64,000 bases of DNA from an uncultured Solirubrobacteraceae bacterium. GTDB lineage: Bacteria; Actinomycetota; Thermoleophilia; Solirubrobacterales; Solirubrobacteraceae. Positions 46,295-64,000 of this stretch are shown in pieces; the first letter of the stretch is position 1, and the number at the start of each line of letters is the position of its first letter. Location: the NCBI GenBank assembly GCA_963843485.1, contig CAWJKK010000015.1:213128-277127 (forward strand), in the 5' to 3' direction. Under the pieces are notes generated by a model, which had not been told where the DNA came from, did no database searches, and saw only the letters and a program-made list of their open reading frames with translations. A program made the translations under genes and the position numbers.

Positions 46295-47494
46295 CTATCG
46301 GACTGAGCGGAATCCGCTCAGCGGCTTGTTCCCCGCTCCCTTCAACGCGGCGCGGGCACCGAACTGGCGGTCGATCCACGCGATCCTGCGCTTGAGCCAT
46401 CCGCGCAGGAAGCGCATCTCGGCGCGGTGGCTGCCGCGCGCCACCGGGTTCGGCCAGATCTCGCGGTCCAGGATCGGCCAGCGCGGAAGTTGGCGACGAC
46501 CGCGCCGCGTCAGCTCGCGCTCGGCGCGAGCGACGGTCGCGAGCACGTCGCGCCGCAGCCCGGCGCGGCGCAGCGCGCGCCAGCGCTGCGCGTAGCGGCG
46601 CGTGAAGCGGCGATCGCGAACAGCCGCTCGGCCCAGTCGCGCTGCTGCGAGCATCCAGCCGCGCGAGGCGGCGGCTCGGCCCGTAGTCCGAGTTGCCCAT
46701 CGAGATGTCGAAGTCCCAGATCGGGCCGAGGCGCAGCTTCCCGTCGCCGTGCAGCGCCATGTACGTGCTGGCGTGGAAGCCGTCCTCGTTCTTGAACAGC
46801 TCGTTGAGCAGCACGAAGTCGACCGCCGAGCGCCTCGTCGATCCAGCGCCGCCAGCTGCCCGGCCCGTAGAGCGCGCGCTCGGCGGCGCGGACCGGCCGC
46901 GCCAGCCGCTCGGCGCGGGCCGCGCGAGAGGTCGCCGCGCTCCGGGTCCTCCCAGACGATCGGCCGCCGCTTGACCGGGGTGCGGAACGACGGCGTCCTT
47001 CGACTGCGCCTGGAACGGGAAGGTGAACTCGTACAGCGCCTCGCCCTGCACCCGGTCGTCGCCGAGCTCGAGCTGCTCCATCAGCACGTAGACGCCGTGG
47101 TGGCGCCCGTTCAGGCGCAGTTCACGAACCGCGTCCGCGCGGCGAAGCGGCCGATCGCGCGCGCCGTCCGGTACGCGACGACGTTGCGCATCAGCGTCTT
47201 GTCGTTGTACGGCGCGTAGAGCACCCAGTCGTCGTCCTCGGGCAGGCCGAGCAGCGCGGTGTCGTCGGCCAGCTCGAGCGCGTACGACTTCTTCGGGAAC
47301 ATCTGCGAGGACTGGCCGCGGGTCTCGATCTCGATCCGGCCGCGGTAGCCGGGCATCCGCAGCTGCGCGCCGATCTTCGGCTCGTTCGGGATCTCGCGCG
47401 CAGCGTCGATCCGGACGACCGGCAGGTCGGCGGAAGCGGCGGCCGGCGCGAGCAGGCCCGCGGCCGCGGCCAGGATGGGGATGATCCAGCGCAT
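46295..47494 (-). CDS. CotH kinase family protein, secreted (paralog 1; several frame breaks)
   Basis: Signal peptide MRWIIPILAAAAGLLAPAAASA. Contains FPKKSYALEL, DDDWVLYAPYNDKTLMRN, NGRHHGVYVLMEQLE, LNELFKNEDGFHASTYM, GPIWDFDISMGNS and C-terminal RFLRGWLKRRIAWID. Confidence 0.75.
46303..46321. terminator. hairpin CTGAGCGG-aat-CCGCTCAG between convergent genes (overlaps the last codons of the CotH gene)
   Basis: A perfect 8-bp stem, read directly. Confidence 0.4.
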
Positions 47495-47963: not shown

Positions 47964-49414
47964 CGACGACGACGGGCGACGCCCGACGCTAGCGCTGAGC
48001 TGCGCCGCCTGCTGCGCGGCGCGCGCACGCGGATCCTCGCCGCGTTCGTGATCCTGCTCGCGTTCTCGACCCTGCTGTCGGTGCTGGCGATCCGCGCAGC
48101 TGCTGCTCGTGCGCACCGGCGACCGCGTCGACGCGGCGCTGCACCAGGAGGTCGACGAGTTCCGCCCGCTCGTCGCGCGGCAACGACCCGGCAGACGGGC
48201 GAGCGCCTTCCGCGGCCGCCTCAACCGCATCTTCGACGTCTACTTCGAGCGCAACGTGCCCGGCGGCGGGCGAGACGCTGATCGCGTTCTTCGGCGCGGC
48301 CGCTAGTACTTCGACGAGTCGGGCGCCACGCGGCGGCGCGCATCCCGGAGGACGCCGCCGGCGCGCTGGGCGACGCTGGCCGAGCCCGAGCGCGGCGACA
48401 TCGAGACGCCGATCGGGACCGTCCGCTACCTCGCGGTGCCCGTCGCGCTTCGGCAACGAGGTGCGCGGCGTGTTCGTGGTCGCCGCCTCGCTCGGCTCCG
48501 AGCGCGACGAGGTCGAGGAGGCCGTGCGGCTGGCCGCGCTCGTGCTGGTCTCGGTGCTGCTGATCGCCTCCGCGCTCGCCTGGGTCGTCGCCGGCCGCGT
48601 GCTCGCGCCGCTGCGGCTGCTGGCCGACACCGCGCGCTCGATCGGCGAGAGCGACCTCACGCGCCGCATCCCGGTGACCGGCCAGCGACGAGATCGCCGA
48701 GCTGGCGCACGACGTTCAACGCCATGCTCGACCGGCTCGAGGCCGCGTTCGCGACCCAGCGCGCGTTCGTCAGCGACGCCAGCCACGAGCTGCGCACGCC
48801 GATCACGATCGTCCGCGGCCACCTCGAGCTGCTCGGCGACGACCCGCGACGAGCGGCGCGAGACGATCGCGCTCGTCACCGACGAGCTCGACCGCATGAG
48901 CCGCTTCGTCGACGACCTGCTGCTGCTGGCCAAGGCCGAGCGCGACGACTTCCTGCACGGTCGTCCGAGCTCGAGCTCGGCGCGCTGACCGACGAGCTGT
49001 TCGACAAGGCGGTCGCGCTCGGCCACGCGCGACTGGCGGCTCGAGGCCGCGCGGCGAGGCGCTGCTGGTCGCCGACCGCCAGCGCCTGACGCAGGCGGTC
49101 ATGGGCCTGGCCCAGAACGCCGTGCAGCACACGGCGGACGGCGACCCGATCTGGATCGGCACCGAGGCCGACCACCGCGAGGCGCGCCTGTGGGTGCGCG
49201 ACACCGGGCCCGGCATCGCGCCCGACGACCAGGAGCGGATCTTCGAGCGCTTCGCGCGCGCGAGCGCCAGCCGCCGGCGGTCGGAGGGCGCCGGGCTCGG
49301 CCTGGCGATCGTCCGCGCGATCGCCGAGGCGCACGGCGGCCGCGTGCGGCGCTCTCGAGCCGGCCCGGCGCCGGCGCCACGTTCACCTTGATCATCCCGT
49401 TGGAGGGCATCATG
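47941..49414 (+). CDS. sensor histidine kinase (TM-HAMP-HisKA-HATPase; several frame breaks; both boundaries uncertain)
   Basis: Contains [21 protein letters not shown] (TM1), the HAMP segment [40 protein letters not shown], the H-box [14 protein letters not shown], the N-box AQNAVQHT, G1 [12 protein letters not shown] and G2 GAGLGLAIV. As given, the frame runs into the RR start without a stop. Confidence 0.7.
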
Positions 49415-50079
49415 AGCCGGATCCTGATCGCCGAGGACGAGCCGCGCCTGTCGAGCTTCCTGGAGAAGGGCCTGCGGGCGGCCGGCTACAGCACGACCGT
49501 CGTGCGACGACGGCGTCGCGCGCGGCGACGCTGGCGCGCGACGCCGAGTTCGACCTGCTGATCCTCGACATCGGGCTGCCGGGCCAGGACGGCTTCGCGG
49601 TCCTGCGGACGATCCGCGGCGCGCGGCGAGAAGCTGCCGGTGCTGATCCTGACGGCGCGCGACGAGGTCGTCGACACGGTCACCGGTCTCGACAGCGGCG
49701 CCGACGACTACGTGACCAAGCCGTTCGTGTTCGAGGAGCTGCTGGCCCGGGTGCGCGCGCGACTGCGAGCACCGCGAGGCAGGGCGACTCGGCCCTCGAG
49801 CTGACCGGCGGCGGCGTCCGGCTCGACGTGCGCACGCGCCGCGCCGAGGTCGACGGCGACGAGGTCGAGCTGACCGCGAAGGAGTTCACGCTGCTGGAGA
49901 CGTTCCTGCGCCACCCCGGCCAGGTGCTCAGCCGCGAGCAGCTGCTCTCGCACGTCTGGGGCTACGACTTCGACCCCGGCTCGAACGTCGTCGACGTGTA
50001 CGTCGGCTACCTGCGCCGCAAGCTCGGCTCCGAGCGGTTCGAGACCGTGCGCGGGATGGGCTACCGGCTCAAGCCTTGA
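49412..50079 (+). CDS. OmpR/PhoB-family response regulator (about 3 frame breaks)
   Basis: Contains [34 protein letters not shown] and the winged helix [26 protein letters not shown]...[10 protein letters not shown]...RGMGYRL (ORF 49828..50079). Confidence 0.8.
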
Positions 50080-51398
50080 GCGCGGGCAGCAGCACCTCGA
50101 CCGTGATGCCGCCGTCGGGCCCGGGCGCGACGGAGCAGCGCCCGCCGAGCGACTCCGCGCGCTCCATCAGGCCGACCGGCAGCGGCCGCGCCGCGTCCCC
50201 GTCGTCGGAGATCCGCAGCCGCACGCCGCCGGCGTCGCGCAGCTCGACCGACACGTGGCGCGCGCCGCCGTGGCGCGCGGCCGCCGCGACGGCCTCGCGC
50301 ACGATCCGCGGCAGCGCCTCGCGCCACGGGCCGGGCACGACCGCGTCCGGGTCGATCGCGACGTCGATGCCCGCACCGAAGGCGACCGCCACCTCCTCCG
50401 CGGTGCGGTCCGAGCGTCACGTGGAACGGCTCGTCGACCGGCCGGGCCAGCGCCGAGATCGCGCCGCGCGTCTCGTCGAGCGCGCGCTCGACCGCCGCGC
50501 GGATCTGCACCGCCGCCTCGCCCTCCGGCGGCGAGCGTGTGCATCTGCGTCGAGATCAGCGCCAGCTCCTGGGCGATGCCGTCGTGCGCGTCGCGCGCCA
50601 CGCGCCGGCGCTCCTCGAACACCTCCGCTCCCGCGTAGGCCTCCTGGTAGCGGCCGATCACGGCGATCGTGCCCACGCCCCAGACGATCGCGACCGCCGC
50701 GTGGAAGAGGTCGCCGACGTAGACGAAGTCCGTGAACGCCGACGGCAGCAGCGCGTAGTTGACGTAGGCGGCGGCGGCGACGATCGCGCCCGCGCCGAGC
50801 CACAGCAGGAAGACGTCGGCCTCGCGGTCGGACCGGCGCGCGAACGCGAGCCGGCGGCGAGGAACAGCGCCGCGGTCACCAGCGCGGCCACGATCAGGCC
50901 CGGCGACTGGCTCAGCCGCTGCAGCTCGGCGGCGGTCTCGGGCTGCTCGGAGAACGCCGGCGGCACGTCGGCGAAGGCGGCGACCGCGACGCACAGCGCG
51001 AGGACCGCGACGCAGGCGGCCGCCGTCAGCGCCAGCGCGCGGCCGGGGTCGCGGAGCCGCCGCTCCGGCGCCAGGGCCGCGCCGGCGAGCAGACCGGCGC
51101 CGAGCACGCCCGCGCTCGTCGACACCCAGGTGGTGACGGGCCCCGACGTCTCCGGCAGCACCGCGGTCAGGACCGCCAGCAGCAGGTTCTCGAACGCGAG
51201 CACGACGACGGCCGCGAGCGCGAGCAGGTCGAGCCGCCGCCGCCCGCGCCGCAGGCGGCCGGTCAGCAGGGCCGCCACGAGGATCAGGACGAGCGCGCAC
51301 GCCGTGTCCTTGCCGACGTGCAGGGCACGGCTCGGGTACGCCGGATCGATCGCGTTCAGGAACAGCGTGAGCGCGAGCCCGGCCAGCACGGTGGCCAC
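50069..51398 (-). CDS. membrane sensor histidine kinase, HisKA_3/NarX-LiaS type (frame breaks)
   Basis: The polytopic N-terminus is in ORF 50658..51398. Contains the H-box [19 protein letters not shown] and the HATPase domain [11 protein letters not shown]...RISDDG...[11 protein letters not shown] (ORF 50069..50392). It is a paralog of 53912..55369. Confidence 0.7.
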
Positions 51399-51649
51399 GA
51401 CGAGGAAGCGCGACGGCGTGATCGGCGGAGGCTAGCCCCCAGCGTGCACGCGGTCCATCCTGCCGTCCTCACGACTGGTACCGGTCCACGGAAGTACGTG
51501 CGGTCGCCGGTGGTCGCCGGCGCCGGCTGACGCCGCACGGTGACCGGAAGCGTGCCGGTGGCACATGACCGGGCACCGGGTGGCGTCAGCCGGTGATCGG
51601 CGGCGCCGGAACCGTGCGCACTGCGGGGGCCGGTACTAGGCTAGGCGCG

Positions 51650-51949
51650 ATGCGCGCGTCAGTGCTCGCCGCCGCCGTCCTCTGCGCCGCCGTCCTCGCC
51701 GCCTGCAGCTCCGGTCAGTCGAACGCGGAGCGGACGGCCCGCGGCGCGGACGCGGTGGCGGCCTGCCAGGACCACGGCGGGGTGGCCGCGTTCGACGACG
51801 ACGCGGTGATCTGCGAGGACGGCACGGCGCGTGACGAGCGCGGCGTGGGAGCGGTCGAGGCCTGCCGCGATCGCGACGGCGTGAGCGCGTTCGACGACGA
51901 CATCGTCATCTGCCGCGACGGCTCGTTCCACGAAGCCGCGGGCGGCTAG
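51650..51949 (+). CDS. lipoprotein with two tandem Cys-containing modules of about 29 aa
   Basis: ATG at 51650 lies within ORF 51593..51949. Lipobox VLAAC-SS. The modules are AVAACQDHGGVAAFDDDAVICEDGT and AVEACRDRDGVSAFDDDIVICRDGS. Confidence 0.6.
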   Translation: MRASVLAAAVLCAAVLAACSSGQSNAERTARGADAVAACQDHGGVAAFDDDAVICEDGTARDERGVGAVEACRDRDGVSAFDDDIVICRDGSFHEAAGG

Positions 51950-51952
51950 CGC

Positions 51953-52629
51953 TCAGTCGTCGTCGTCTTCGCCGGCGTCGTCGGCGTCGTCGTCGCCGCC
52001 GTCGTCAGCGTCATCGTCGTCTCGTCGCTCGTCGAGGAGCAGGAGCAGGAGCAGGAGCAGGAGTCGACGGGGCCGGCGCCGGCGGCGGCGCAGCAGCACG
52101 CTCGTCGTCGTCGTCGCCGGCCCCGTCGTCATCGCCGTCCCCGGCTCCCCGATCCCCCTGATCGAAGTCGTCGTCGTCGTCATCGTCGTCGCTGACCACC
52201 GTGTCACGCGTCGGCGTGCCGCCGGTGTCGGGCGCGGGCGCCGGCGCGCTCGTCTCGCGCTCTGCCGGTCAAGCCGCCGCCACCGCTGCTGGCCTGGCGC
52301 CGCGCCGCCCGCTTGCGGGTGCGGGTGCGGCGCACGGCGCGCTCGCGCGCGGCCGTCGCGGCGGCCTCGGCGCGCTCGATGCGCGCGGCCCGGACCGCGG
52401 CTCGGCGCTTGCCGGCGCGCTCGGAGCGCTGCGTGACGGTCTCGCGTACGGCCTCCGCCTCGTTCAGCGTGCGCGGCCCTTCGTCGAGCTGCACGGCCTT
52501 CGTGTCGCCGTCGCGCGTCGCCGCTCCCGTGAGCACGACCGTGAGGGCCGCGACGGCGAAGCAGGCGAGAATCGTCAGTCCGTAACGCTTCACGGGCCAG
52601 AAGATCCCGGTTGCACCTGAGCGATGCAT
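51953..52629 (-). CDS. membrane-anchored low-complexity protein: TM helix, Arg/Ala-rich basic segment, poly-Asp/PAPAP acidic tail (frame and 3' end ambiguous)
   Basis: ORF 52204..52629 starts MHRSGATGIFWPVKRYGLTILACFAVAALTVVLTG, with GGAG 3 nt upstream of the ATG. The tail pieces [13 protein letters not shown]... and PAPAPAPAP lie in the frames of ORFs 52011..52199 and 51953..52654. Confidence 0.4.
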
Positions 52630-52666
52630 GAGCTCCGGGTGAGAAAGCTCTCATCCGCCCTCATCG
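52628..52666. promoter_or_regulatory. phased pentamer array, site 4: ATGAG(52628) GTGAG(52639) CTCAT(52650) CTCAT(52660)CG
   Basis: Read directly. It lies between the acidic-tail membrane protein gene (start 52629, minus strand) and the response regulator gene at 52711. Confidence 0.5.
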
Positions 52667-52710
52667 CGCCTTCACCGTGCTCTCACGCAGCCGCAGCAAG
52701 ATCGCGGCCG

Positions 52711-53128
52711 ATGGTCACGCCCGAGCCGCTCCGCGTCGTGATCGCGGACGACCACCCCATGTATCGCGACGGCCTCGCGCGCGCGCTGCGCGCGAGCGGG
52801 ATCGACGTCGTCGCCGAGGCGGCGAACGGCGAGGCCGCCGTGCAGGCCGTGGCCGCGACGGCAGCCCGACGTCGTCGTGATGGACCTCAGCATGCCCGGC
52901 GTCTCCGGGCTCGAGGCGATCCGCATCGTGGTCGAGCACGCGTCGACCACGCGCGTGCTCGTGCTCAGCGTCTCGGCCGAGGCGCGCGACATCGACGACG
53001 CGATGACGGCCGGCGCCGGCGGCTACGTCCTCAAGGACGAGCCGGTCGAGGACCTGATCGCCGCCGTGCGCGCCACCGCGGTCGGCCACCGGCGGATCTC
53101 GCCGGGCTCGGGGCGCACCGGACCATGA
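52711..53128 (+). CDS. response regulator receiver domain, truncated paralog lacking the LuxR HTH (frame break near 52865)
   Basis: ATG at 52711. Contains LRVVIADDHPMYRDGLARAL, VVVMDLSMPGVSGLEA and GAGGYVLKDEP. It ends shortly after the receiver, where similarity to the downstream copy stops. Confidence 0.6.
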
Positions 53129-53178
53129 CGGCCTGGGCTGGACCGGCGCGGTCGAGTCGGGCAGGATCAGGTTTACAG

Positions 53179-53847
53179 GTGATCGAGCCGACCCCTCAGC
53201 CCGAGCCGCTCCGCGTCGTGCTCGCGGACGACCACCCGTTCTACCGCGACGGCCTCGCGCGCCTGCTCGAGCAGAGCGGGATCGACGTCGTGGCCGCCGT
53301 CGGCAACGGCGAGGCGGCGGTCCGCGCGGTGGCCGAGACGGCCCCGGACGTCGTCGTGATGGACCTCAACATGCCGGGCATGTCCGGGCTCGAGGCGACG
53401 CGGCATCCTCGGCCGGCGCTCGCCCCGCCTCGCGCGTGCTCGTGCTGAGCGTGTCGGCGCAGGCGGAGGACGTGACCGAGGCGGTGCTCGCGGTGCGTGC
53501 GGCTACGTGCTCAAGGAGGCGCCGGTCGAGGAGGTCGTCGCCGGCATCCGCGCCGCCGCCGACGGGCAGTCGCTGATCTCGCCGCGGATCGCGAGCGTGC
53601 TGCTGCGGCGGGTACGCGAGGCGGCCGCCGACGAGGCGACTGACCTGCGCGCCGTGCAGCTGTCACCGCGCGAGCTACGAGGTGCTCGGCCTGCTCGCCG
53701 AGGGCCGTGCCAACCACGAGATCGCCGACCGAGCTGGTGATCAGCCCGAGCACGGTGCACAACCACGTCTCGAGCATCCTGATCAAGCTCCAGGTCGAGA
53801 ACCGCGTGCAGGCCGCGGTGCGGGCCGTGCGCGACGGCCTCGTCTAA
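53179..53847 (+). CDS. NarL/FixJ-family response regulator (receiver plus LuxR-type HTH; about 4 frame breaks)
   Basis: GTG at 53179. Contains LRVVLADDHPFYRDGLARLL, VVVMDLNMPGMSGLEA, GYVLKEAP, LSPRELEVLGLLAEGRANHEIA and LVISPSTVHNHVSSILIKLQVENR. TAA at 53845-53847. Confidence 0.8.
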
Positions 53848-53911
53848 GGTCGTGCCGCGGCGGTTGCGGCGGTCGCCGCCGCGGGTTTAGGCTCGCCTCC
53901 GGGCGCCATCG

Positions 53912-55369
53912 ATGGCGGTCCGGGGGAAAACTCTGACGCGCAACCGGCACGAAAGCAGGGAGCGCCGAGTCACTTCGGCGGACGCGCTGTACGCCGCGTC
54001 GATCGCGGCCAGCGTCTGCCTGGCGCGTCACGCTGATCGTCAACCTCGCGCCGCCGCTCGACCCGTCGATCGGCAGCCGGCGCTTCCACGTCGCGCTCGA
54101 GACCTCCGCGGCGATGGTGCTGATGTTCGTCTCGGCGGTGCTGCTCGGCCGCTTCCGGCTCAACAGCTCGCTGCGCACGCTGCTGAAGTTCACGGCGACG
54201 TTCTCGCTCGCGCTCGAGAACCTCGTCTCGGCGGTGCTGACGATCGCGCTCGACGGCGACGACACGAACTTCGTCGACCTGGGCGACCGCGATCGCCGGG
54301 CTGCTCGGCGCGACGCTGCTGGCGTCGGCGGCGCTGCTACCTGACCGCCACGTCGCGCGCCAGAGCCGCGCGATCGCGATCGCCGTCGGCGCGAGCGTCG
54401 CGGTGCTCGCGCCGCTCGTCGCGCTGACCGCGTTCTTCTCGAGCTCGCTGCCGGGCGCGTTCGACGTGCCCCCGGAGTCGCTGACCGGTCTGCAGCGGCT
54501 CAGCGAGCACCCGGCGCTGATCGTGATCGAGGCGCTGACGGCGACCGGCTTCGGCGTCGCCGCGGTCGCGTTCGCGCGGCTGGCCGCAGGAGCGCGACGA
54601 CGAGTTCCTCAAGTGGCTCGGCGTCGCCTCGTGATCGCCTCGGTCGGCGTTCCTGAACTACGCGCTCTTCCCGTCGCAGTTCACCGAGCTGATCTACAGC
54701 GGCGACCTGTTCTTCATCGCCGCGATGGTCGCGCTCGCGTACGCCGCGGTGCGCGAGATCGCCAACGAGGAGGCGGCGAACATCCGCTCGGCCGTGCTCG
54801 AGGAGCGGCGGCGCGTGGCGCGCGACCTGCACGACGGCGTCGCCCAGGAGCTGGCGTTCATCGCCTCGCAGACGCGCTGGTTCATCCGCCGAGCCGAACG
54901 ACGGCCAGCCGCTCGAGCAGATCATGGACGCGGTCGAGCGCGCGCTCGACGAGTCGCGCGGGGCGATCGCCGCGCTCAGCCGCCCGATCGACGAGCCGCT
55001 CGACCTCGCGCTCGGCCAGGCGGCCCAGGACGTCGCGAACCGGATCGGCGCGCGGCTGCAGCTCGACCTCGACGCCGCGCGTCGAGGTGCCGCCCGACTG
55101 GCGCGACGCGCTGCTGCGGATCGCCCGCGAGGCGGTCGGCAACGCGGTCCGCCACGGCCGCGCGCGCACGGTCAGCCTGCAGCTGCACGAGGCCGACTCG
55201 GTCACGCTGCGCGTCACCGACGACGGCGACGGCTTCGATCCCGACGCACCGCGGTCGACGCTCAGCTACGGTCTGACCAGCATGCGCGAGCGCACCGAGT
55301 CCCTCGGCGGGGAGTTCCGATCTCGTCCGTCGAGGGCGCCGGCACGACGATCGAGGTGGTGCTCCCTGA
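53912..55369 (+). CDS. membrane sensor histidine kinase, HisKA_3 type (frame breaks); paralog of 50069..51398
   Basis: Polytopic N-terminus (MVLMFVSAVLLGRF..., ALENLVSAVLTIAL). Contains the H-box [19 protein letters not shown], plus REAVGNAVRHG, RVTDDGDGF and GLTSMRERTESLGGEF. Confidence 0.7.
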
Positions 55370-56027
55370 TGACGGCGACACGTCCGCGCGTGCTGATCGC
55401 CGACGACCACGCGCCGACGCGGACCGGCGTGCGGATGGCGCTCGAGCGCCGACGGCCTGCGCGGTCTGCGCCGAGGCCGCGAACGCCGGCGAGGCGGTCC
55501 GCGCCGCGGTGCGCCGAGCGCCCGGACGTCTGCCTCGTCGACCTCGGCATGCCGGGCGACGGCCTGCGGGCGGTGGCCGGCATCGCCGCGGCGCTGCCGG
55601 AGACGCCCGGTGCTCGTGCTCACGGTCTCGCGCGTCGGGCGACGACCTGCTCGACTCGCTGCGCGCCGGCGCCGTCCGGCTACCTGCTCAAGGACATGGA
55701 CCCGGCGCAGCTGCGCCGGCTCCGTGCGCGCGACGCTCGAGGGCGAGGCGCCGCTGCCCGGCTTCATGGCCGCGCGCCTGATCGAGGAGTTCCGCTTCCG
55801 CGGCGCCGCACCACAGCATCGTCGTCCAGAACCGCCGGGTCGAGCTGACGCCGCGCGAGTGGGAAGTGCTCGAGCTGCTCAGCGACGGACTGTCGACGGC
55901 CGAGATCGCCGCCCAGCTGGAGCTCTCGCAGGTCACCGTCCGGCGCCACCTGTCGATGCTCGAGCACCGCCTGCAGGTGAGCTCGCGCGAAGAGGCCGTA
56001 CGCCTGTTCTGCGCGCGTCAGTCGTAG
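55369..56027 (+). CDS. NarL/FixJ-family response regulator (frame breaks)
   Basis: ATG at 55369. Contains RVLIADDHAPTRTGVRMAL, CLVDLGMPGDG, GYLLKDMDP, LTPREWEVLELLSDGLSTAEIA and LSQVTVRRHLSML. TAG at 56025-56027. Confidence 0.75.
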
Positions 56028-56302
56028 TCGAGCCGCAGCAGCGCCAGGTCGCGCGGCGCCAGCTCGACCTCGTACTCGCGCCCGCCCTGGCGCGATCGCG
56101 ACCTCCCACTTGCCGTTGTCGCGGTCGCGGCGGACGTCGAGCACGCGCGCCCGGGACGACCTCGAGCGCGGCGGCGACGGCGCGCTGCGCGGCCGGCGTG
56201 GCCGGGTCGACCGGCAGATCGTCCTCCTCGGGCCAGACCAGCAGCACGACGCCGACCACCACGGCGGCGGCGGCGATCAGCGCGACCGAGGCGCCGCTTC
56301 AC
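56018..56302 (-). CDS. small membrane-anchored PepSY domain protein (2-3 frame breaks)
   Basis: GTG at 56302 (GTGA overlap with the kinase stop). VKRR then ASVALIAAAAVVVGVVLLVW (TM), then AAQRAVAAALEVVPGARVLDVRRDRDNGKWEVAI...GREYEVELAPRDLALLRLDYD. Confidence 0.55.
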   Translation of the reverse strand: MKRRLGRADRRRRRGGRRRAAGLARGGRSAGRPGHAGRAARRRRRARGRPGRACSTSAATATTASGRSRSRQGGREYEVELAPRDLALLRLDYD

Positions 56303-57124
56303 GCGGTGAGCGGACGCAGCCGTTCCATCACCTCGTCGAGCGACGGGCGATCGTCGGGCTCGGTCGCCAGGCAGGCGTCGATCGCCTCCGCCAGCGCCGC
56401 CGGCACGCTGCCCGCAGCGGCGGACGGCGCCGGCCCGTCGAGCTGCGGGTAGCCCGCCGCGAGCTGCTCGCCGGTGCTCCAGGTGCGCGGCGTGACCGCG
56501 GCGCCCTCCGCCGTGTCGGACGCGTCGGTCCAGGACTCGTCGTCGTCGAACGCCGGCTCGCCGGTCGCGGCCTCGTAGAGCACGGTGCCGAGGCCCCAGA
56601 CGTCGGCCGCCGGGCCCGAGCTCGTCGCCGCGCGCCTGCTCGGGCGAGAGGTTGCACCAGGTGCCGAGGCCGGCGCGGTAGCGGCCCGGCGCGCGGGCGA
56701 GCGAGAGGTCGATCAGCTTCGCGCGGCCGCCGTCGGCGACCACGTTGGAGGGCTTGACGTCGAGGTGCAGGACGCCGTGGCGGTGCAGGTAGCGCAGCGC
56801 CGAGGCGAGGTGCAGGCCGAGCCAGGCGACGTCCTCGGCGGCCAGCCCGTCCGGGTGGCGGTCGACGAGGTGCGCGAGCGTCTCGCCGTCGAGCGTCTCC
56901 ATCACGACGACGAGCTCGGGCTCGCGCAGCAGCTCGTAGCCGCGGACGATGTGCGGGTGGGTGAGCGCCGTCAGCAGGCGGCCCTCGGCGAGCAGCGCCG
57001 CGCGGGCGCGCTCGTCGTCGCGGCGGTCGGGCCGCAGCGTCTTGGCCACGCACGAGCACGCGCGCTCCTCGCTCCACACCTCGTAGGTGTCCAGCCGGCG
57101 CGTGCGGCTGAGGTGCTCGATCAC
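56299..57124 (-). CDS. short Ser/Thr protein kinase, catalytic domain only (frame break near 56590)
   Basis: Contains VAK (beta3 Lys), LHRHGVLHLDVKPSNVV (catalytic loop), the DLS variant of DFG, SPEQ and DVWGLGTVLYE (ORF 56299..56583). The start is taken as GTG 57124 (GTGA overlap with the ABC stop); ATG 57157 is the alternative. Confidence 0.75.
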
Positions 57125-58946
57125 GAGCCCGGTGCGAGCCGGTGCCGGCCACGGCATGTCGGCGCACTCATGCCGCCGCGATCGCAGCTCGCGCCGCGCG
57201 CCACGCGCCCGTCGCGCAGCACGATCGACCTCGTCGGCCGCCGCGGCCAGCTCGAGGTCGTGCGTGATCAGCAGCGTCGCGCGGTCGCGCATCAGCCGCC
57301 GCAGCGGCGCGACCAGGCGGCGCGAGGTCTCGGCGTCGAGCCCGGCGGACGGCTCGTCGAGCACGAGCACCGGCGCGTCCTGGAGCAGCGCGCGCGCCAT
57401 CGCGACGCGCCGGCGCTGGCCGCCGGAGAGCGCGCGCCCGCGCTGGCCGGTGCGCGTGGCGGAGGCCGTCGGGCAGCTCGTCGGCCGAGCCCGCGGCGGC
57501 GGCCGCGGCGAGCGCGCCGCGGACCTCGCTCGTCGGTCGCCTGCGGCCGCCCGTAGGCGACGTTCTCGCGCACGGTGCCGTCGAACAGCGGCGCGTCCTG
57601 CAGCAGCAGCGCGACGTTGTCGCGCAGCGAGCGCAGCGTCACGTCGCGCACGTCGTGGCCGTCGAGCCGCACGACGCCCTGGTCCGGGTCGGCGAAGCGC
57701 AGCGCGAGCTTGGCGAGCGTCGACTTGCCCGGCGCCGCTCGGCGCCGACGACCGCGACGCAGCGGCCGGGCCGCACGAGCAGGCTGACGCCGGCGAGCGC
57801 CGGGCGCTCGGAGCCGGGGTAGCGTGTAGCTGACCTCGTCGAGCTCGAGCTGGCCGCGCACGCGGTCGAGCGGCCGCGCGTCCGGGCGCTCGCGCACCGC
57901 GCGGCTCGGTGTCGAGCAGCTCGATCACGCGCTCGGCGCCGGCCGTGCGCCTCGAACACCGTCTGGCCGAGCCGCGAGAGGTCGCGCACCGGGCGGTAGA
58001 GCTGCGAGAGGTAGGCGAGGAACGCGAGCAGGCCGCCGATCGTGAGGTCGCCGGCGGTCAGCGCCCAGGTGCCGAGCACGATGATCAGTGATCGCGCCCG
58101 CGAGCTCGATCAGGTCGATGATCGGGGCGAACAGGCCGGCGATGCGGGTGCCGGCCAGCTCGGCGGCCATCGCGCCCTCGTTCTCGCGCCGGAAGCGCTG
58201 CAGCTCGTGCTCCTGCGCGTTGGCCGACTGCACGAGCGCGGCGTTGGCGAGCGCCTCCTCGGCGACCGCGGTCAGCGAGCCGCTGCGGCGGCGGCGCTCG
58301 CGCGCGGCGCGGCGGGCCAGGCGCGCGAAGCGGTGGGCGGCGAAGTAGAAGACCGGGACGACGATCAGCGAGGCGAGCGCGAGCTTCCAGGAGAGCAGGC
58401 ACAGCGCGCCGGCGAAGAACAGCAGCCGCGCGGCGGCCTGCACGACCTCGGCGATCGCCGACAGCAGCAGCGTCTCGATCGCGTGCACGTCGCCGGTGAC
58501 CCGCGCGAGCACGTCGCCGTGGCGGCGGCGGTCGAGCGCGTCGGGCTCGAGCGGCTGCAGGTGCGCGAGCAGCCGCGTGCGCAGGGCGAGCGTGAAGCGC
58601 TCGCCGACCCAGGTGGCGGCGTACTCGTCGCCGAAGGACAGCAGCGCGCCGAGCAGCGCGAGGCCGACCATCACCGGCACGTAGACGGCGAGCGGGCCGA
58701 GCGACTCGGCGACGAGCACGTCGTCGACGATCAGCTTGAAGATCCAGATCTCCGCGGCCTCGACGGCCGGCAGCAGCGCGGCGAGCGCGACGCCGGCGAC
58801 GAACGGCTTGCGGTAGCGTGCGCGCCAGCGGCCAGAAGCGGCGGACGACCTCGCGCAGCGGGACCGTCGGGCGCGGCCGCGACGACCTTGTCGTCGTCGG
58901 GGGCGGGCGCGAGGGAGGTGGCGAGTCGGTCGAGGAGGAGGCGCAT
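57121..58946 (-). CDS. ABC transporter, fused permease/ATPase exporter type (several frame breaks)
   Basis: The TMD is in ORF 57925..58719 (six TM helices). Contains Walker A G.GKSTLAKL, the signature LSGGQRRRVAMARALL, Walker B VLVLDEPSAGLD and the H-loop ITHD. ATG at 58946 is followed by high GC3. Confidence 0.8.
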
Positions 58947-59171: not shown

Positions 59172-59225
59172 GTCGGCCTCCTTGCGTCGGGGTTTCCCTG
59201 TCGAAGACAAAGATGCCCGCGCGCG

Positions 59226-59273
59226 GTGAGCGATCCGTGAGGCGCCGATGAGAAGACGCTCACCGAGCATGAG
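59226..59273. promoter_or_regulatory. phased pentamer array, site 2: GTGAG(59226) GTGAG(59237) ATGAG(59248) CTCAC(59259) ATGAG(59269)
   Basis: Read directly. 59235-59254 is the exact reverse complement of 63732-63751. The array lies upstream of the small ORF/ABC/kinase/PepSY unit. Confidence 0.5.
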
Positions 59274-59864
59274 CAACGCCAGGCGGCTGTGCGCCCGCGC
59301 CATCAGCCGCACCAGCACGGCCGAGAGGACGGCCAGCGGAGCCGCCAGGAGCATCACGCCGAGCGCCTCGAGCAGCGTGTCGACGTTCAGGACGCCGAAC
59401 TCGACGCCGTCGGGGATCGACCAGTACCAGAGCGGCAGCGTGGCCGCGCCGAGCGTGTAGCCGACGAGCGCGACGGCGACGATGCCGAAGGCCATGCCGA
59501 CCACCGAGTGGGTGATCAGCCAGGCGAGGTCCTTCCACGTCTGCGGGTCGCGGAACGTGCGCGAGAGGCGCATCAGGATCGGGCCGCTGTGGTCGCGGTA
59601 GCGCGCCTTCACCGGAGCGCCGAAGACGAGCGCGGCGTTCTGGCGGTCGAGCTCGACGGTCCAGCGGAACACGATCGCGGTCACCAGCGCGACGGGCAGG
59701 CCGACGATGAAGACGGCCAGCGAGAGGGTGACGCTCACTCCCGTGATCCAGACGGCGAGCGCCAGGATGCTGGTGGCGAGCCCGAACGTGAGGTACAGCG
59801 TGTCGCGCCCGAGCCTGCGGATCCACGCCTGCGGCACCGGGACGTTGAGGGCAGTCGTCGTCAT
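59260..59864 (-). CDS. stand-alone putative-sensor-domain membrane protein (N-terminal module of actinobacterial LiaS-like kinases, no kinase domain); 3' end uncertain
   Basis: ATG at 59864 lies within ORF 58731..59918. Contains RDTLYLTFGLATSILALAVWITGVSVTLSLAVFIVGLPV..., FRDPQTWKDLAWLITHSVVGMAFGIVAVAL and LPLWYWSIP. GC3 collapses after about 59265. Confidence 0.55.
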
Positions 59865-59934
59865 GCCCTCAGGATCGGTTCTGCGGGGCCCGGCCGCCAT
59901 GACGCCGGCAGGCGTCATGGCGGTGGGGAAAACC

Positions 59935-61100
59935 TCAGCGCAACGCTGTGTCCAGCCACGCCGTGCGGCGCGTGAGCCAGTCCTTCAGTGGCGGCGACGG
60001 CCGCCGTCGTGCGAGCCGTGCACGGGCTGGTTGACGGAACAGCGGGCGGTCGAGCACGTCGCCAGCGGGCGAAGTTGCGCCGCGCCGGGCCGCGCAGCTC
60101 GCGCGCGTGGCGGTCGGCGCTCGCCAGCAGCGCCTCGAGGATCCCGTCGGCGCGCAGCTCGCGCCAGCGCGCGCGCGAGCGCGGCCTGGAACGCCGGGTC
60201 GGCCAGCAGCGCGGCTCGCCCACGGGCGGTCCGCCAGCAGCCAGCCGTCGGGCGCCGACATGGCGCGGATCGATCGTGTTGCCGGCGCTGAGGTCGAAGT
60301 CCCAGACCGGGCCGAGGTGCGAGCTTGCCGTCCTCGGGCTGATGCGAGGTACGTGCTCGAGAGGAACGCGTCCTGGTTCTTGAACAGCTCGGCGTGCAGC
60401 ACGTAGTCGACCGCCGACGCCTCGTCGAGGTGCGCGGCGCCAGCCCGGGCCGCCGAGCGCGGCCTCGAACGCCTCGACGCAGGCGCGCGGCCCGCGCTCC
60501 TTCTCGTCGGCCTCGTCGGGCTCGGCGTGGACCACGGTCAGCCCGCTGGCGGACGCGGAACGACTCGTCGTCGGCGTCGAGCCTTGTCGCGGCTCGGTCA
60601 GCTCGAGCAGCGCGTCGCCCTGCACGCGCGGTCGCTAGCTCGGCGGCTCGATCAGCACGTACACGCCGCGGTAGCGGCGGTTGACGCGCAGCTCGACGAA
60701 GCGCGTGCGGCTGCGCCGCGAGCCCGATCCGCCGCGCCGTGCGCGTGCGCGAGCACGTCGCGCAGCAGCGTCGGGTCGGTGTGGAACGCGTTCAGGTCCC
60801 AGTCGTTCTCGCGCGGCATGCCCGAGCAGCCGCACGTCGCTTGTCGGTCTCGATCGCGTACGGCTTCTTGGCGAACGCGCTGCGAGGACTGAGCCGCGCA
60901 GCTCGATGCCGACGCTGGTAGGTGCCGGCTGCCGACCGTTGAGCCGGGCCGGGACCTTCGGGTCGTCGCGGATCTGCTTCTTCGCCGTCGATGCGCGACC
61001 TTCGGGACGTCGGCCGGCAGCCGCCTCGGCGCGTCAGCGCGAGCGCGACCGCGGCGACCGGGGCGGCGCGGAAGTGCCGCGCGCAGCAGCGGCCGCAGGC
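59935..61100 (-). CDS. CotH kinase family protein (paralog 2; many frame breaks; 5' boundary approximate)
   Basis: Pieces: FAKKPYAIETDK, GMPRENDWDLNAFHTDPTLLRDVLAH, TRFVELRVNRRYRGVYVLIEP, ELFKNQDAF, LGPVWDFDLSAGN, RARWRELRADGILEALL and C-terminal LKDWLTRRTAWLD. Confidence 0.65.
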
Positions 61101-61845
61101 GGTTGCTCGCGCACGCCGGGCCGCGTGAAGCGCGACGCCGAGGCAGTACTTCGAGCAGCCGTCGGCCGGGCCGCGCGCCGAGCGCGCGCAGCACGCGGTC
61201 GGCCGACCGCGTTGCCGCGCGGCGACTTGCTCTCGACGATCACGCGCGCCGGCGGCGAGCCGCCCGCGGCGCCGTCGGGCGCGCGGAAGGCGAGGTCGAA
61301 GTCGCACGTCAGCGCGCTCGCCGAGCTCGGGCGCGGCGAGCGTCACGCGCGTGTAGGCGACGGCCAGCGCCGGCCGCAGGCCGCCGCTCGGGCGCGCGCC
61401 CGTAGGCGCGCTCGACGCACTCGCGCAGGAACGCGCAGCGCGGGCTCGGAGAGCGCGTCGCGCGGCTCGCGCGTCGTACGGCCATCCGGTGCTTGACCGT
61501 GCGGCCGCGCGCGCCCCTTGAGCTTGACCTCGAAGGTGCACAGGCCGCTGTCGACGTACTCGCGCGAGCGGCACTTGTAGCGCCGCCGGCGCTGCTGGAC
61601 GTGGTCGCGGAACGCGCGCAGCTCGGCGTGTCGAAGTACGTCGTGCGGTAGCGCGAACGCGCGCCGGCCGTCGATCTCGAGCACCGCGTGGGTGCCGCGC
61701 AGCCGCTCGGCGAGCGCGCGCGAACGGCTCGAGCGGGACGACGTACTTGACGTCCATGCGGTCCTGCAGCGCGGCGGCCGCCTCGAGCTCGGCGAGCCCG
61801 ACGGGCGGGAAGCGACTCAGCGACGAGCGAGGCGACCGGGCGCAT
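61100..61845 (-). CDS. VTC (polyphosphate-polymerase-like) domain protein (many frame breaks; 3' boundary approximate)
   Basis: ATG at 61845. Pieces: LQDRMDVKYVVPLE, LEIDGRRAF, RRRRYKCRSREYVDSGLCTFEVKLKG, AVAYTRVTL, VIVESKSPRG and SKYCLG. Confidence 0.65.
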
Positions 61846-62434
61846 CGAGCGCCTCCTCGGGGACGGCGTCGGCGGGGCGTCGGACGTAGCGCACCTCGGC
61901 GCGCGTGGTCTCGCGCACGTAGTCGATCTCGCGCACGGTCACCTCGAGCACCTGCGCGTTGAGCCGCTCCTCGAGGTGGCGGCGCAGCGCCTCGTCGTCG
62001 GCGAACACGAGCTCGAGCGTCACCTCGAGCCGGCTGCGTCGGCGCGGCTCAGCCGCGGGTGGTCGATCAGCCAGGCGGCGGCGAGCGCGATCGCGGCCAG
62101 CAGCGCCGGCGATAGGCGGCGTCGCCGAGGTCGATCGCGCAGACGAGCGCGAGCACGAGCGCGACGAAGAAGTAGGCCAGCTCGCGGTTGGAGAACGGCT
62201 CGCTGCGCAGCCGCACGATCGAGAGCACGGCGAACAGGCCGAAGCCGACGCCCATGCTCGACCTCGCCGCCGGCGATCACCGACAGCGCGAGGAACAGGC
62301 CGACGTTGAACAGCGCGTAGACGACCGACGAGGTCCATGCGCCGGTGGCGCGGATGGAAGAGGCCGTAGACGAGCACGGCGATCGCCACGACGTCGATGG
62401 CCAGCCGCACGAGGACGTCGCCGAGGTCGATCAT
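61817..62434 (-). CDS. DUF4956 domain membrane protein (frame breaks)
   Basis: ATG at 62434 is preceded by GGGAGGA. Contains MIDLGDVLVRLAIDVVAIAVLVYGLF, MGVGFGLFAVLSIVRLRSEPFSNRELAYFFVALVLAL and the C-terminus LEVTLELVFADDEALRRHLEERL...REIDYVRETT. Confidence 0.7.
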   Translation of the reverse strand: MIDLGDVLVRLAIDVVAIAVLVYGLFHPRHRRMDLVGRLRAVQRRPVPRAVGDRRRRGRAWASASACSPCSRSCGCAASRSPTASWPTSSSRSCSRSSARSTSATPPIAGAAGRDRARRRLADRPPAAEPRRRSRLEVTLELVFADDEALRRHLEERLNAQVLEVTVREIDYVRETTRAEVRYVRRPADAVPEEALDAPGRLARR

Positions 62435-62489
62435 GCCCGATGTCCTCCCCAGCGCGGTGAGTCGTTCGGAGGCGGCGATGAGGAACTTC

Positions 62490-63674
62490 TCACCCGAGTC
62501 GCGGCAGGTTGCCGTCCAGCCAGGCGATCCGGCGGTCGAGCCAGCGCTCGCAGCGCGCGCACGTGGCCGCGTGCGGCTGCCGCGCGGGCGGTCGCCGCCG
62601 GCGGGCCAGCGCGCGGCTGTCGCGCCGGCGGCCGCCGCGCGCAGGCGCGCGCTCGTGCGTTCGCGACCTGCGCAGCAGCCGCGCCGCGCAGGCCGTCGCG
62701 GCGCAGCTCGCGCCAGCGGCGCGCCATCGCGCGGGCGAACGCGCGGTCGCGGTAGAGCGCGCTCGGCCCACGGGCGGTCGGCGAGCATCCAGCCCGTCGA
62801 GCGCGCGCGCTCGGCGCCACGCGGCCGCGCGCCCATCGAGATGTCGAAGTCCCAGATCGGGCCCGAGCCGCAGCCGGCCGCCCGGCGCGCCGGTCATGAA
62901 CGTGCTCGCGCGCATCCCGTCCTGGTTCTTGAACAGCTCGTTGAGCAGCAGGTGGTCGACCGCCGCTGCGCGCGTGCAGGTGGCGCCGCCAGGCGCCGGG
63001 CCGGCCGCGGTAGAGCGCGCGCTCGGCGCGCGCGACGCGGCGCGCGGATCGCGCGCGCCTCGCGGCGCTCGAGAGGTCCTCGCGCTCCGGGTCCTCCCAC
63101 ACGACCGGCAGGCCGCGTGACCGGCGTCCGGAACGACGGGTCCTTGCGCGCGCGCCTGCCGCGCGCGAGGTCAGCTCGAGCAGGAAGCGCGTCGTCGCCG
63201 CCCGCACGCGGTCGTCGTGGAGCTTGAGCTTCTCCATCAGCACGTAGACGCCGTGCGTAGCGGCCGTTGATCGCGAGCTCGACGAAGCGCGTGCGCGCGG
63301 CGTAGCGGCCGATCCAGCGCGCGGTCTCGTAGGCGAGCACGTTGCGCATCAGCGTGCGGTCGTTGTAGGCGGCGTACAGGACCCAGTCGTCGTCGGCCGG
63401 CATCCCGAGCAGCGGCGACGTCGCGGTTCTCGCCCTCGGCGTCGCGCAGCTCGACGGCGTAGGACTTCTTCGGGAAGCGTGCGCGACCAGCTGGCCGCGC
63501 AGCTCGATCGCGACGGCGCCCGTCGAAGCCGGGCGCGCGCAGCGCGCCGGGACGTCCGTCGTCGCCGATGCCGCGCTCGGGCTCGACGTGACGCGCGGCA
63601 GCGCGCGGCGGCGGCGGCGGCGGCGGCAGCGCGAGCGCGACGGCGCGGCGAGGGCGGTCGAGGGCGGAGGGCAT
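62490..63674 (-). CDS. CotH kinase family protein (paralog 3; many frame breaks)
   Basis: ATG at 63674. Pieces: FPKKSYAVELRDAEGE, MPADDDWVLYAAYNDRTLMRNVLAYETARWIGRYAARTRFVEL, VYVLMEKLKLHDDRV, WDFDISMG-type region, AMARRWRELRRDGL and C-terminal ERWLDRRIAWLD. Confidence 0.7.
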
Positions 63675-63711
63675 GCCGATCACGGTCGCGCGCGCGCCGG
63701 TAAGACGGCCC

Positions 63712-63760
63712 GTGAAACGGCGATGAGGACGTTCTCATCGGCGCCTCACGGCCGGCTCAT
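63712..63760. promoter_or_regulatory. phased pentamer array, site 3: GTGAA(63712) ATGAG(63723) CTCAT(63734) CTCAC(63745) CTCAT(63756); contains CGATGAG-N6-CTCATCGG
   Basis: Read directly, with exact 11-bp spacing. It lies between CotH paralog 3 (start 63674, minus strand) and the Ser/Thr kinase gene (start 63785, plus strand). Confidence 0.5.
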
Positions 63761-63784: not shown

Positions 63785-64000
63785 ATGAACGCATCGGCAC
63801 TTCCACGCCAGGGCGACGAGATCGCCCCCGGCCTGCGGGCGCGTCCGCCTGCTCGGCGGCGGCCGCCGCTACGAGGCCCACCTCGCGCTCGGCCGACCAC
63901 CTGCGCGCGCTCGTCGTCGTCGAAGGTCCTGCGCCCCGAGCCGGTCGACGACGCCGGCGCGCTCGCCGGCCTGCGCGGCGAGGCGCGCGATGCTGCGACC
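63785..64000 (+). CDS. Ser/Thr protein kinase, N-terminal fragment (continues beyond the window; frame breaks)
   Basis: ATG at 63785. MNASALPRQGDEIAPGLRA..RLLGGGRRYEAHLA..DHLRALVVVKVLRPE..., showing the Gly-loop and beta3 Lys region. It resembles the N-terminus of the kinase at 56299..57124. Confidence 0.55.
   Translation, partial: MNASALPRQGDEIAPGLRARPPARRRPPLRGPPRARPTTCARSSSSKVLRPEPVDDAGALAGLRGEARDAAT

Follow-up and report, generated by a model that had tools for sequence, protein, structure and literature searches.

A conserved DUF4956–VTC–CotH operon recovered from noisy sequence of an uncultured Solirubrobacteraceae bacterium

Introduction

What would a bacterium gain from encoding side by side, on one strand, secreted proteins of the CotH family, a DUF4956 membrane protein and a VTC-domain protein resembling a polyphosphate polymerase? 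The question is raised by a stretch of 64,000 nucleotides (hereafter the window; GenBank assembly GCA_963843485.1, contig CAWJKK010000015.1, positions 213,128 to 277,127) from an uncultured Solirubrobacteraceae bacterium. An earlier note, made from the sequence alone, had read a CotH–DUF4956–VTC–CotH operon at 59.9–63.7 kb of the window, with a third CotH gene 12 kb away, and had suggested that it may be an extracytoplasmic phosphorylation or polyphosphate-handling system. We report here that the operon is real and conserved, and that it can be recovered from what is a noisy sequence. The cotH/VTC/DUF4956 gene set is already known and uncharacterised, and the operon is not categorically new; new are the VTC–signal-anchor–CotH fusion and the topology that it implies, the measured near-invariance of the DUF4956–VTC pair, a conserved two-component system, and a kinase-rich, pel-free actinobacterial context. 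As an explanation we put forward, tentatively and as a possibility rather than a probability, that polyphosphate is made and exported across the membrane in a manner coupled to extracytoplasmic CotH kinases.

Results

Frame correction and gene content of the operon

The window has a G+C content of about 75%, and none of the genes named in the earlier note is an intact open reading frame (ORF) in the sequence as given; all of them lie on the minus strand, at or near the positions where they had been placed. Between 59.9 and 63.8 kb the protein motifs are spread over all three minus-strand frames, with about one single-base insertion per 35–60 nt from 60 to 63.7 kb, and uncorrected single-frame translations gave partial CotH and DUF4956 matches and left VTC unmatched. 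As frameshifting is near-universal, ORF-based reading of the window requires frame correction. Frames were stitched in two ways, by a codon-usage Viterbi path permitting one-base shifts and by frameshift-tolerant protein-to-DNA alignment guided by intact orthologs, and Pfam was then run on the residues read from the window's own DNA. The Viterbi path needed about 50 frame changes in 59.9–63.8 kb and the protein-to-DNA alignment about 60 in 3.7 kb. For comparison we used five loci of close relatives (L001–L005), among them a 304-kb metagenome contig (L003; ENA ERZ25039504 contig_40188) and a metagenome-assembled genome labelled Solirubrobacteraceae (L005).

After correction, Pfam returned full-length or near-full-length matches for the three CotH proteins, the VTC domain and DUF4956, which bears out the identities that the earlier note had assigned to them. 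CotH gene 1 (62493–63683, minus strand; about 380 aa, probably secreted; about 18 frameshifts) matches PF08757 over the whole profile (positions 1–322 of 322, E = 7e-37, with 62493–63652 scanned), carries the motifs KNQDG and IWDFD, and is identical to the intact L003 CotH at 287 of 383 positions. It is followed by the 204-aa DUF4956 membrane protein (61820–62434, minus strand; 6 frameshifts), with a match to PF16316 at E = 9e-50 (169.1 bits against a cut-off of 30.6, profile 1–169 of 169) and 80% identity to the L001 protein. The VTC domain, of the triphosphate tunnel type and Vtc4-like, occupies 61080–61845 on the minus strand (PF09359, E = 6e-22, 78.7 bits against a cut-off of 23, profile 2–233 of 235) and appears to be the N-terminal half of a fused protein, the C-terminal half of which would be CotH domain 2 (59938–61000, minus strand; PF08757, E = 7e-38; KNQDAF at 60364–60381 and VWDFD at 60293–60307). 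The whole fusion (59938–61845) is identical to the L003 protein at 531 of 624 alignment positions. The third CotH paralog (46295–47494, minus strand), aligned to the L002 CotH, matches PF08757 at E = 2e-36, carries KNEDG and IWDFD behind a predicted N-terminal signal peptide, MRWIIPILAAAAGLLAPAAASA, and is divergent from a two-component system. The three window proteins score 128.1, 131.4 and 126.5 bits with PF08757, against a cut-off of 23.8. The earlier note had also described the system as duplicated, which does not hold, since only CotH is present in several copies and DUF4956 and VTC are single.

So many frameshifts could mean that they are genuine and that the operon consists of decaying pseudogenes. 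In favor of decay, frame changes are densest over the CotH, DUF4956 and VTC genes, and the adjoining Sensor gene has none: the window is free of frameshifts at 59186–59988, with the 600-nt Sensor gene inside, and again at 58087–58819. Frameshifts, however, reach across the entire 64 kb, housekeeping genes included; the Viterbi path makes 1–5 frame changes per 500 nt over much of the window, with the densest part at 46.5–64 kb. No sequencing run searched by 31-mers held more than 7% of the 31-mers of the region, and L003 served as comparison instead. This contig is collinear with the window over 55.9–64.0 kb, with 93.7% identity in aligned bases, and all operon genes except the ABC gene are open on it. 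Over these 8.1 kb, comparison with L003 shows 127 insertions and 32 deletions of one base in the window; only 22 of the 127 insertions stand beside an identical base, as homopolymer extension would have it, and 81% of the inserted bases are G or C, matching genome composition. The corrected proteins are 75–96% identical to their intact L003 orthologs, and a single in-frame stop seen in the alignment of the fusion vanishes under the frame path of the codon model. Contigs with long-read-style names (L002, L003) carry errors of their own: the C-terminus of the L002 CotH2 (L002 9251–10384) leaves frame at the same place as that of the third CotH of the window, and a frameshift in the ABC gene of L003 (12919–15452) costs the ATPase domain and merges the gene into a kinase call. 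Because the genes are intact in L003 and the pattern is insertion-rich, independent of homopolymers and matched to composition, the frameshifts of the window are best read as uncorrected read errors, and gene decay is very improbable.

The VTC–CotH fusion and its predicted topology

The order proposed earlier, with CotH genes bracketing DUF4956 and VTC, stands; the further proposal that VTC and the second CotH are separate genes does not, since in the closest relatives they form a single ORF. This is so in L001 (611 aa), L003 (610 aa) and L004 (628 aa). A protein database search with the stitched window protein found at least 50 clusters of 538–675 aa with both Pfam domains and 49–83% identity; their sources are soil metagenomes and genomes listed at NCBI under the name Solirubrobacteraceae. 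Split forms of VTC and CotH occur on L002 and L005. We conclude that VTC and the CotH at 59935–61100 most likely form one fused ORF in the window, and that the separate-gene model describes a genuine variant, not the one expected here.

The two domains are joined by a hydrophobic linker, FRAAPVAAVALAL (61035–61073, minus strand), preceded by basic residues and conserved in 26 fusion proteins as a putative signal-anchor or internal signal peptide; the junction ...LLRRHFRAAPVAAVALALGAAAPAAAADVPR... is conserved as well. Stand-alone CotH orthologs that are 65–72% identical to the fused domain start with this same segment as an N-terminal, cleavable-looking Sec-type signal peptide, as in P0171 (MSLRRHLLAAPVAAVALTLGAAAPAAAADLPR) and likewise in P0175. 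Because of this homology, the linker can be regarded as a signal peptide turned signal-anchor. It is flanked by Arg and Lys ahead and by acidic residues behind, an arrangement which implies that the VTC domain would lie inside the cell and the CotH domain outside it.

Folds and predicted catalytic residues

The AlphaFold prediction for P0121, a 610-aa ortholog with 85% identity to the window protein, reached a pLDDT of 82.6. Its N-terminal half matches yeast Vtc4 structures at E values from 7e-10 to 5e-9 (5IIG, 7e-10; 3G3R, 1e-9; 8I6V_E, 1e-9; also 3G3Q), and other tunnel enzymes more weakly (ygiF, 2e-6; CYTH proteins, about 1e-5). A match to Vtc4 from sequence only was sought with a single fusion sequence and with a profile of 26 fusions and was given up, neither having reached Vtc4; a broader profile, built from 33 diverse VTC proteins of bacteria, does align to it (E = 9e-6).

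The alignment to 8I6V_E begins at residue 195, which places the invariant DxKY lysine (K33; 'RvDrKY') on K200 of Vtc4; in the window the equivalent lysine lies in DVKYV (61740–61754). The invariant KxRxRxY motif (R92/R94) aligns to the RLR of Vtc4 HRLRWY in 3G3Q, 5IIQ and 8I6V_E, and other invariant positions (Glu, Lys, Arg and Asp) align to tunnel strands. The arginines of HRLRWY are, we take it, R264 and R266. Residues K200, R264 and R266 are reportedly catalytic in Vtc4, as Hothorn is said to have found in 2009, and all three appear to be conserved in the VTC domain of the operon. On the fusion, which has one hydrophobic linker, Pfam finds VTC and CotH and no other domain; the SPX domain and the C-terminal three-helix VTC membrane domain were not found, and the protein is therefore to be called a member of the VTC domain family, not a VTC-complex subunit.

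The C-terminal half of the P0121 model matches CotH of B. cereus (5JDA; E = 2.6e-15, target-normalised TM-score 0.66). The N-Q/E-D and WDFD motifs of all three window genes align to QNFD and WDYD of the B. cereus protein. In B. subtilis CotH, a Ser/Thr protein kinase, the substitutions D228Q and D251A inactivate the kinase (PMC7821199), and from their spacing on the B. cereus chain we infer that the aspartates of the window proteins are the equivalents of D228 and D251. Family, fold and these putative catalytic aspartates are thus shared with Bacillus CotH (5JD9/5JDA), whereas sequence identity is about 18% and the partners here are VTC and DUF4956. Bacillus CotH is assembled on the forespore from the mother-cell cytoplasm, whereas the CotH proteins here are predicted to be exported by way of a signal peptide or anchor. 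The host belongs to a group that is not known to form endospores.

DUF4956 was studied through its ortholog P0017, the AlphaFold model of which (pLDDT 91.8) shows five membrane-length helices and a C-terminal ACT-like beta-alpha-beta-beta domain. Residues R74, R76 and S77 are invariant. The basic loops RRHRR, RLRSE (with R74/R76/S77) and HPRLSRPSRR all lie on the side of the ACT-like domain, and by the positive-inside rule the model suggests that the N-terminus is outside and that the basic loops and the ACT-like domain are inside. A fold search of the Protein Data Bank with this model returned no VTC-complex chain and no channel, its best matches being weak ones to ACT domains (E = 0.13). The idea that DUF4956 is a relative of Vtc1 or a known channel was rejected for want of a fold match. 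Fusions of DUF4956 to VTC were also considered as evidence of coupling and set aside, since 10 long DUF4956 representatives carry no second Pfam domain.

Conservation of the neighborhood and its regulators

All five close-relative loci retain the divergent kinase (by Pfam in L001–L004), DUF4956 and VTC–CotH, the latter split in L002 and L005; an upstream CotH, Sensor, ABC, a second kinase, PepSY, a subtilase, and a histidine kinase with response regulator are variable extras. Because the gene order recurs in L001–L005, the arrangement is not due to chance, and the genes have the operon-like arrangement, conserved among relatives, that the earlier note had supposed.

Beyond these loci, a DUF4956 profile built from a 22-sequence alignment found relatives in at least 584 species genomes, and the best 80 loci, from Actinomycetota and Chloroflexota, were analyzed. 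VTC follows DUF4956 directly and on the same strand in 76 of these 80 species-genome loci, and also in two distant representatives. A 29-nt overlap joins the two genes in L001, L003 and L004, and they are probably translationally coupled. A CotH profile placed CotH beside the pair only in L001–L005. In 36 further loci the two nearest genes on each side were assigned to Pfam families, and the 25 most frequent of these do not include CotH. DUF4956 with VTC directly behind it makes up the invariant core, and CotH is a lineage-specific partner. The statement in the earlier note that CotH, VTC and DUF4956 recur together in other bacteria is right in so far as the trio is found elsewhere (bioRxiv 10.1101/768473; bioRxiv 10.1101/2024.04.20.589940; PMC2879425); CotH is not a general partner.

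Other neighbors recur around the core. A HAMP-HisKA kinase with an OmpR-type regulator is present in about 25 loci, and in 11 of them it lies immediately upstream in the same orientation. The association with Hanks-type kinases that had been proposed for the window extends to relatives, with a divergent Pkinase in L001–L004 (by Pfam) and a Pkinase within four genes in 12 loci in total. Cthe_2159 stands directly downstream in 11 actinobacterial loci and a Lamin Tail Domain protein in 5; GT2-GtrA occurs in 5 loci (directly upstream in 4), an ABC exporter in 5 at variable positions, and a NAGPA phosphodiester glycosidase in 4, within two genes. The Cthe_2159 proteins (about 535–590 aa) fill the first position after VTC in L033, L039, L043, L065, L073, L077, L081 and others, which is the slot of CotH in the window; the Lamin Tail Domain proteins of the 5 loci are small and also occupy that slot. 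A run of genes on one strand, identical in one NCBI genome and two JGI metagenomes (L086/L087/L088, 2017–10176), reads whiB, a GT2 of about 1040 aa, DUF5719, DUF4956, VTC and a 583-aa protein, and therefore ties the core pair to envelope glycan genes.

The third CotH of the window is divergent from a two-component system on the plus strand (48012–50076), made up of a HAMP-HisKA histidine kinase (48012–49426) and an OmpR-type response regulator (49412–50076). This pair is orthologous to the one found near DUF4956–VTC elsewhere: against the pairs beside DUF4956–VTC in 13 actinomycete loci, the kinase is 44–46% identical over 98% of its length, sensor part included, and the regulator 58–65%. Eleven of the 13 orthologous pairs lie directly upstream on the same strand, and those of L051 and L053 lie on the opposite strand. 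On one JGI contig, regulator, kinase, CotH, ABC, DUF4956 and VTC stand together, with the ABC exporter between CotH and DUF4956–VTC. Because of this orthology and of the JGI contig, the third CotH and its two-component system belong with the operon 12 kb away. With NCBIfam, the two-component system matched no equivalog (PhoR, MtrB, CseC and others) at cut-off, the nearest being the heavy-metal sensor subfamily at 209 bits against the 292 required.

Membership in an anti-phage defense system was considered and rejected, as the core genes have no PADLOC match: PADLOC gave 0 matches for DUF4956, VTC–CotH, CotH and Sensor, and generic kinase-domain matches only for the divergent kinase. Neither NCBIfam nor PADLOC has a model for the core proteins.

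Other genes of the window

Divergent from the operon, at 63785–64000 on the plus strand, begins a short, soluble Hanks-type Ser/Thr kinase that is cut by the window end; 53 of its 71 residues are identical to the L003 kinase, and its orthologs in L001, L002 and L003 are PF00069 proteins of 270–273 aa, likewise divergent from the operon. The region between this kinase and CotH gene 1, a putative divergent promoter region, contains a 21+21-nt palindrome (63710–63751; core GATGAGGACGTTCTCATC), 81% complementary and without spacer. A search with the core gave 3 matches against 0.02 expected, one of them a copy with 3 mismatches at 62477–62494, between CotH gene 1 and DUF4956. The L003 intergenic sequence retains, by eye, the outer arms CCGTGA...TCACGG. 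The palindrome may be an operator or an RNA hairpin. Of the operator arrays invoked in the earlier note, this palindrome and that one copy are all that was seen. A promoter and terminator scan, uninformative at 75% G+C, gave 0 promoters and 2 terminators against 1 expected.

Downstream of the fusion, on the same minus strand, the stand-alone sensor-domain membrane protein noted earlier was recovered as a multi-pass Sensor protein (59262–59918; PF13796, E = 1e-29; 0 frameshifts), with 146 of 201 residues identical to the L001 protein and the same position in L001 and L003. There follow an ABC exporter with fused membrane and ATPase domains (57200–58943; ABC_membrane, E = 2e-46; ABC_tran, E = 2e-23; 457 of 580 identical to the L005 ABC), a second Hanks-type Ser/Thr kinase (56302–57171; PF00069, E = 1e-31; 257 of 286 residues identical to the L003 kinase) and, as the last gene of the same-strand run, a small membrane-anchored PepSY-domain protein (56021–56302; 89 of 93 residues identical to the L003 protein), which matches NCBIfam PepSY_MTB with E = 1e-8, under the cut-off of the model. 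Between the operon and the third CotH, at 50000–56000 (L003 15700–21500), lies a dense block of HisKA_3 kinases and LuxR-type (GerE) regulators, with at least 2 kinases and at least 3 receiver domains, conserved in L003. The domain type of the operon's Sensor, PF13796, is normally found at the N-terminus of kinases of this HisKA_3 class.

Farther away, a PhoD-like phosphatase is encoded at about 37160–38530 on the plus strand (PF09423, E = 9e-88), 8 kb from the third CotH, and a PhoD gene is also found on L002 (12855–14030), 2.5 kb from the operon; this proximity may reflect a link to phosphate starvation or merely synteny. At about 44400–45200, on the plus strand, a long protein with a C-terminal nuclease toxin domain of the WHH/HNH type (PF14414, E = 4e-15; Colicin-DNase, 5e-11) precedes an immunity protein of the SMI1/KNR4 (SUKH) family (E = 4e-18), together a polymorphic-toxin pair, with a possible WXG-like small protein upstream of the toxin (EAYRETDDGQM motif, by eye). 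An RTX/HemolysinCabind calcium-binding repeat protein lies at 25900–27100 on the minus strand (E = 1.5e-39), and a protein of the same family is found near the operon on L002 (16608–17858). Past the divergent kinase, in a region that would lie outside the right end of the window, L001 (8508–9086) and L002 (5231–5737) encode a membrane-anchored Gly/Asp-rich repeat protein (GDGDRTRGNDGTxGGxNT) with no Pfam family.

Discussion

The closest known counterpart of the operon is an accessory set of cotH, a polyphosphate polymerase gene and DUF4956, with or without DUF4832, that adjoins pelDEADAFG in streptococci, clostridia and bifidobacteria and for which it was proposed that CotH regulates Pel synthesis through protein phosphorylation (Whitfield et al., 2020; bioRxiv 10.1101/768473). 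The corresponding S. intermedius proteins SIR_1594/1593/1592 have been analyzed by structure prediction (bioRxiv 10.1101/2024.04.20.589940), and the C. perfringens locus NELoc-2 contains VTC-domain genes, a CotH gene, genes annotated as 'tubulin/FtsZ' beside the VTC genes, and a chitin-synthase-like gene (PMC2879425). None of the three studies tested the function of the trio, and in the literature searched DUF4956 is rarely mentioned and nothing was found on a bacterial VTC enzyme. As in the pel set, the three families are contiguous on one strand in the window (CotH–DUF4956–VTC~CotH, minus), CotH is predicted to be secreted and VTC to be cytoplasmic, both appear to keep their catalytic residues, and DUF4956 is a multi-pass protein with an ACT-like tail. 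The operon differs from the pel set in the fusion of VTC to one CotH through a putative signal-anchor, in its extra CotH paralogs, two Hanks kinases, Sensor, ABC exporter and two-component system, in its host, a soil actinobacterium, and in its fourth gene, a PF13796 Sensor (followed by ABC and Pkinase) and not DUF4832 or a diguanylate cyclase/phosphodiesterase. Pfam was run over 26–27, 29–38.6 and 42–64 kb of the window, and neither in the scanned parts nor in the flanks of L001–L004 were pel, glycosyltransferase or polysaccharide-export families found.

A second comparison is with the yeast VTC complex (Vtc4/Vtc3/Vtc1; 7YTJ, 8I6V, 3G3Q). The Vtc4-like tunnel fold and the aligned Lys and Arg residues are kept, the tunnel domain is coupled to a membrane protein, here encoded by the adjacent gene, and the product would likewise go to the non-cytoplasmic side. 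In contrast to yeast, there is here no SPX domain and no C-terminal three-helix membrane domain, DUF4956 is not detectably similar to Vtc1 in either sequence or fold, the plasma membrane of a bacterium would house the system, and activity is predicted from sequence and model.

With these comparisons in mind, we suggest the following scheme. The VTC domain would polymerize polyphosphate from nucleoside triphosphate on the cytoplasmic side. DUF4956, its obligate membrane partner with a very basic cytoplasmic face, would conduct the chain or hand it across the membrane, in a role analogous, not homologous, to that of the membrane channel or ring of yeast VTC. The signal-anchor would tether VTC to its CotH domain outside, and two further CotH proteins would be secreted. 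These might act on or with the exported polymer, for instance by using it as phosphoryl donor where ATP is scarce, on surface or secreted substrates. The partners outside would in general bind, process or use the polymer, carbohydrate-binding or phosphodiester-cleaving proteins replacing CotH elsewhere. The HAMP-HisKA/OmpR system and the two adjacent Hanks-type kinases would control expression or activity. The role suggested in the earlier note is in keeping with the predicted catalytic residues, the Vtc4-like and CotH-like folds of the models and the signal-peptide origin proposed for the linker.

Several points weigh against polyphosphate export coupled to CotH. The structural evidence comes from orthologs, the window sequence itself being too error-ridden to model, and the literature searched gives no experiment on a VTC or DUF4956 protein from any bacterium. 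Since the activities of tunnel enzymes are many, triphosphatase and cyclase included, the domain need not be a polymerase. In its fold DUF4956 bears no detectable resemblance to VTC membrane domains or solved channels, an SPX domain is lacking, and the linker is moderately hydrophobic, with a Kyte-Doolittle mean below 1.6 over 19 residues. The absence of CotH from most DUF4956–VTC loci means that it is not essential to the core, and that the idea of a phosphoryl donor is lineage-specific at best. CotH of B. cereus was crystallised with Mg2+/AMP (5JDA) and hence binds adenine nucleotide, that of B. subtilis is a Ser/Thr protein kinase (PMC7821199), and the authors of the S. intermedius study suggest that polyphosphate may remain cytoplasmic (bioRxiv 10.1101/2024.04.20.589940).

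Much of this would suit a signalling or envelope-modification cluster that exports no polyphosphate. The cytoplasmic VTC domain would then be a polymerase, a triphosphatase or a sensor of phosphate polymers, anchored or regulated by DUF4956 through its ACT-like domain, and the CotH proteins would be ATP-using kinases acting on secreted or envelope proteins or glycans, co-regulated with the pair and not mechanistically coupled to it. The diversity of the tunnel-enzyme superfamily, with matches of the model to ygiF and CYTH as well, the ACT-like-only matches of the DUF4956 fold with no channel among them, the loci without CotH, the preference of the S. intermedius authors for cytoplasmic polyphosphate and the proposal by Whitfield et al. 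that CotH regulates Pel by protein phosphorylation all speak for it. A conserved covalent fusion of VTC to CotH through a signal-anchor is, however, difficult to account for unless the two are functionally linked across the membrane, a kinase outside the cytoplasm would have no evident source of ATP, and the replacements of CotH (Cthe_2159, Lamin Tail Domain, NAGPA) belong to carbohydrate-binding or glycosidase families according to Pfam. These replacements we take to be extracytoplasmic. On balance we regard a cluster without export as somewhat unlikely.

Those same neighbors lend themselves to a different account, one that overlaps with our scheme: the operon could be an accessory module of an exopolysaccharide or cell-wall glycopolymer, as at the Gram-positive pel loci, in which CotH would be a glycan kinase or phosphotransferase and VTC and DUF4956 would supply phosphate or polyphosphate for decorating the polysaccharide. 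The contiguity of the trio with pelDEADAFG in streptococci, clostridia and bifidobacteria fits such a module, as do the chitin-synthase-like gene of NELoc-2 and the glycan-related neighbors elsewhere (Cthe_2159, NAGPA and GT2-GtrA, with GT2 and DUF5719 directly upstream in L086). The present lineage offers it less, since pel, glycosyltransferase and polysaccharide-export genes are missing from the scanned parts of 26–64 kb and from the L001–L004 flanks, and the neighbors here are kinases, sensors and an ABC exporter. A glycan module in this host is, in our opinion, unlikely. Export of polyphosphate toward the CotH proteins is the account that we keep, at the tentative level given at the outset.

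Synthesis of polyphosphate by bacteria is attributed to PPK1 and PPK2, and the Vtc4-type polymerase is treated as eukaryotic. CotH kinases occur widely outside the spore-forming bacteria, as in the streptococcal Pel loci and the C. perfringens pathogenicity locus, with no role and no phosphate donor assigned to them there. A bolder version of polyphosphate export, which we consider decidedly unlikely, is that the VTC type constitutes a third bacterial route to polyphosphate beside PPK1 and PPK2, and that exported CotH proteins use the polymer, not ATP, as donor toward proteins or glycans; the VTC–signal-anchor–CotH fusion would then be a fossil of the coupling between polymer and CotH. The fusion, the near-invariant pairing and the two-component system make topology, synthesis and export, and donor specificity experimentally addressable. 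Should the coupling prove true, it would explain where a kinase outside the cytoplasm obtains its phosphate, and it would give a function to two large families, DUF4956 and bacterial VTC.

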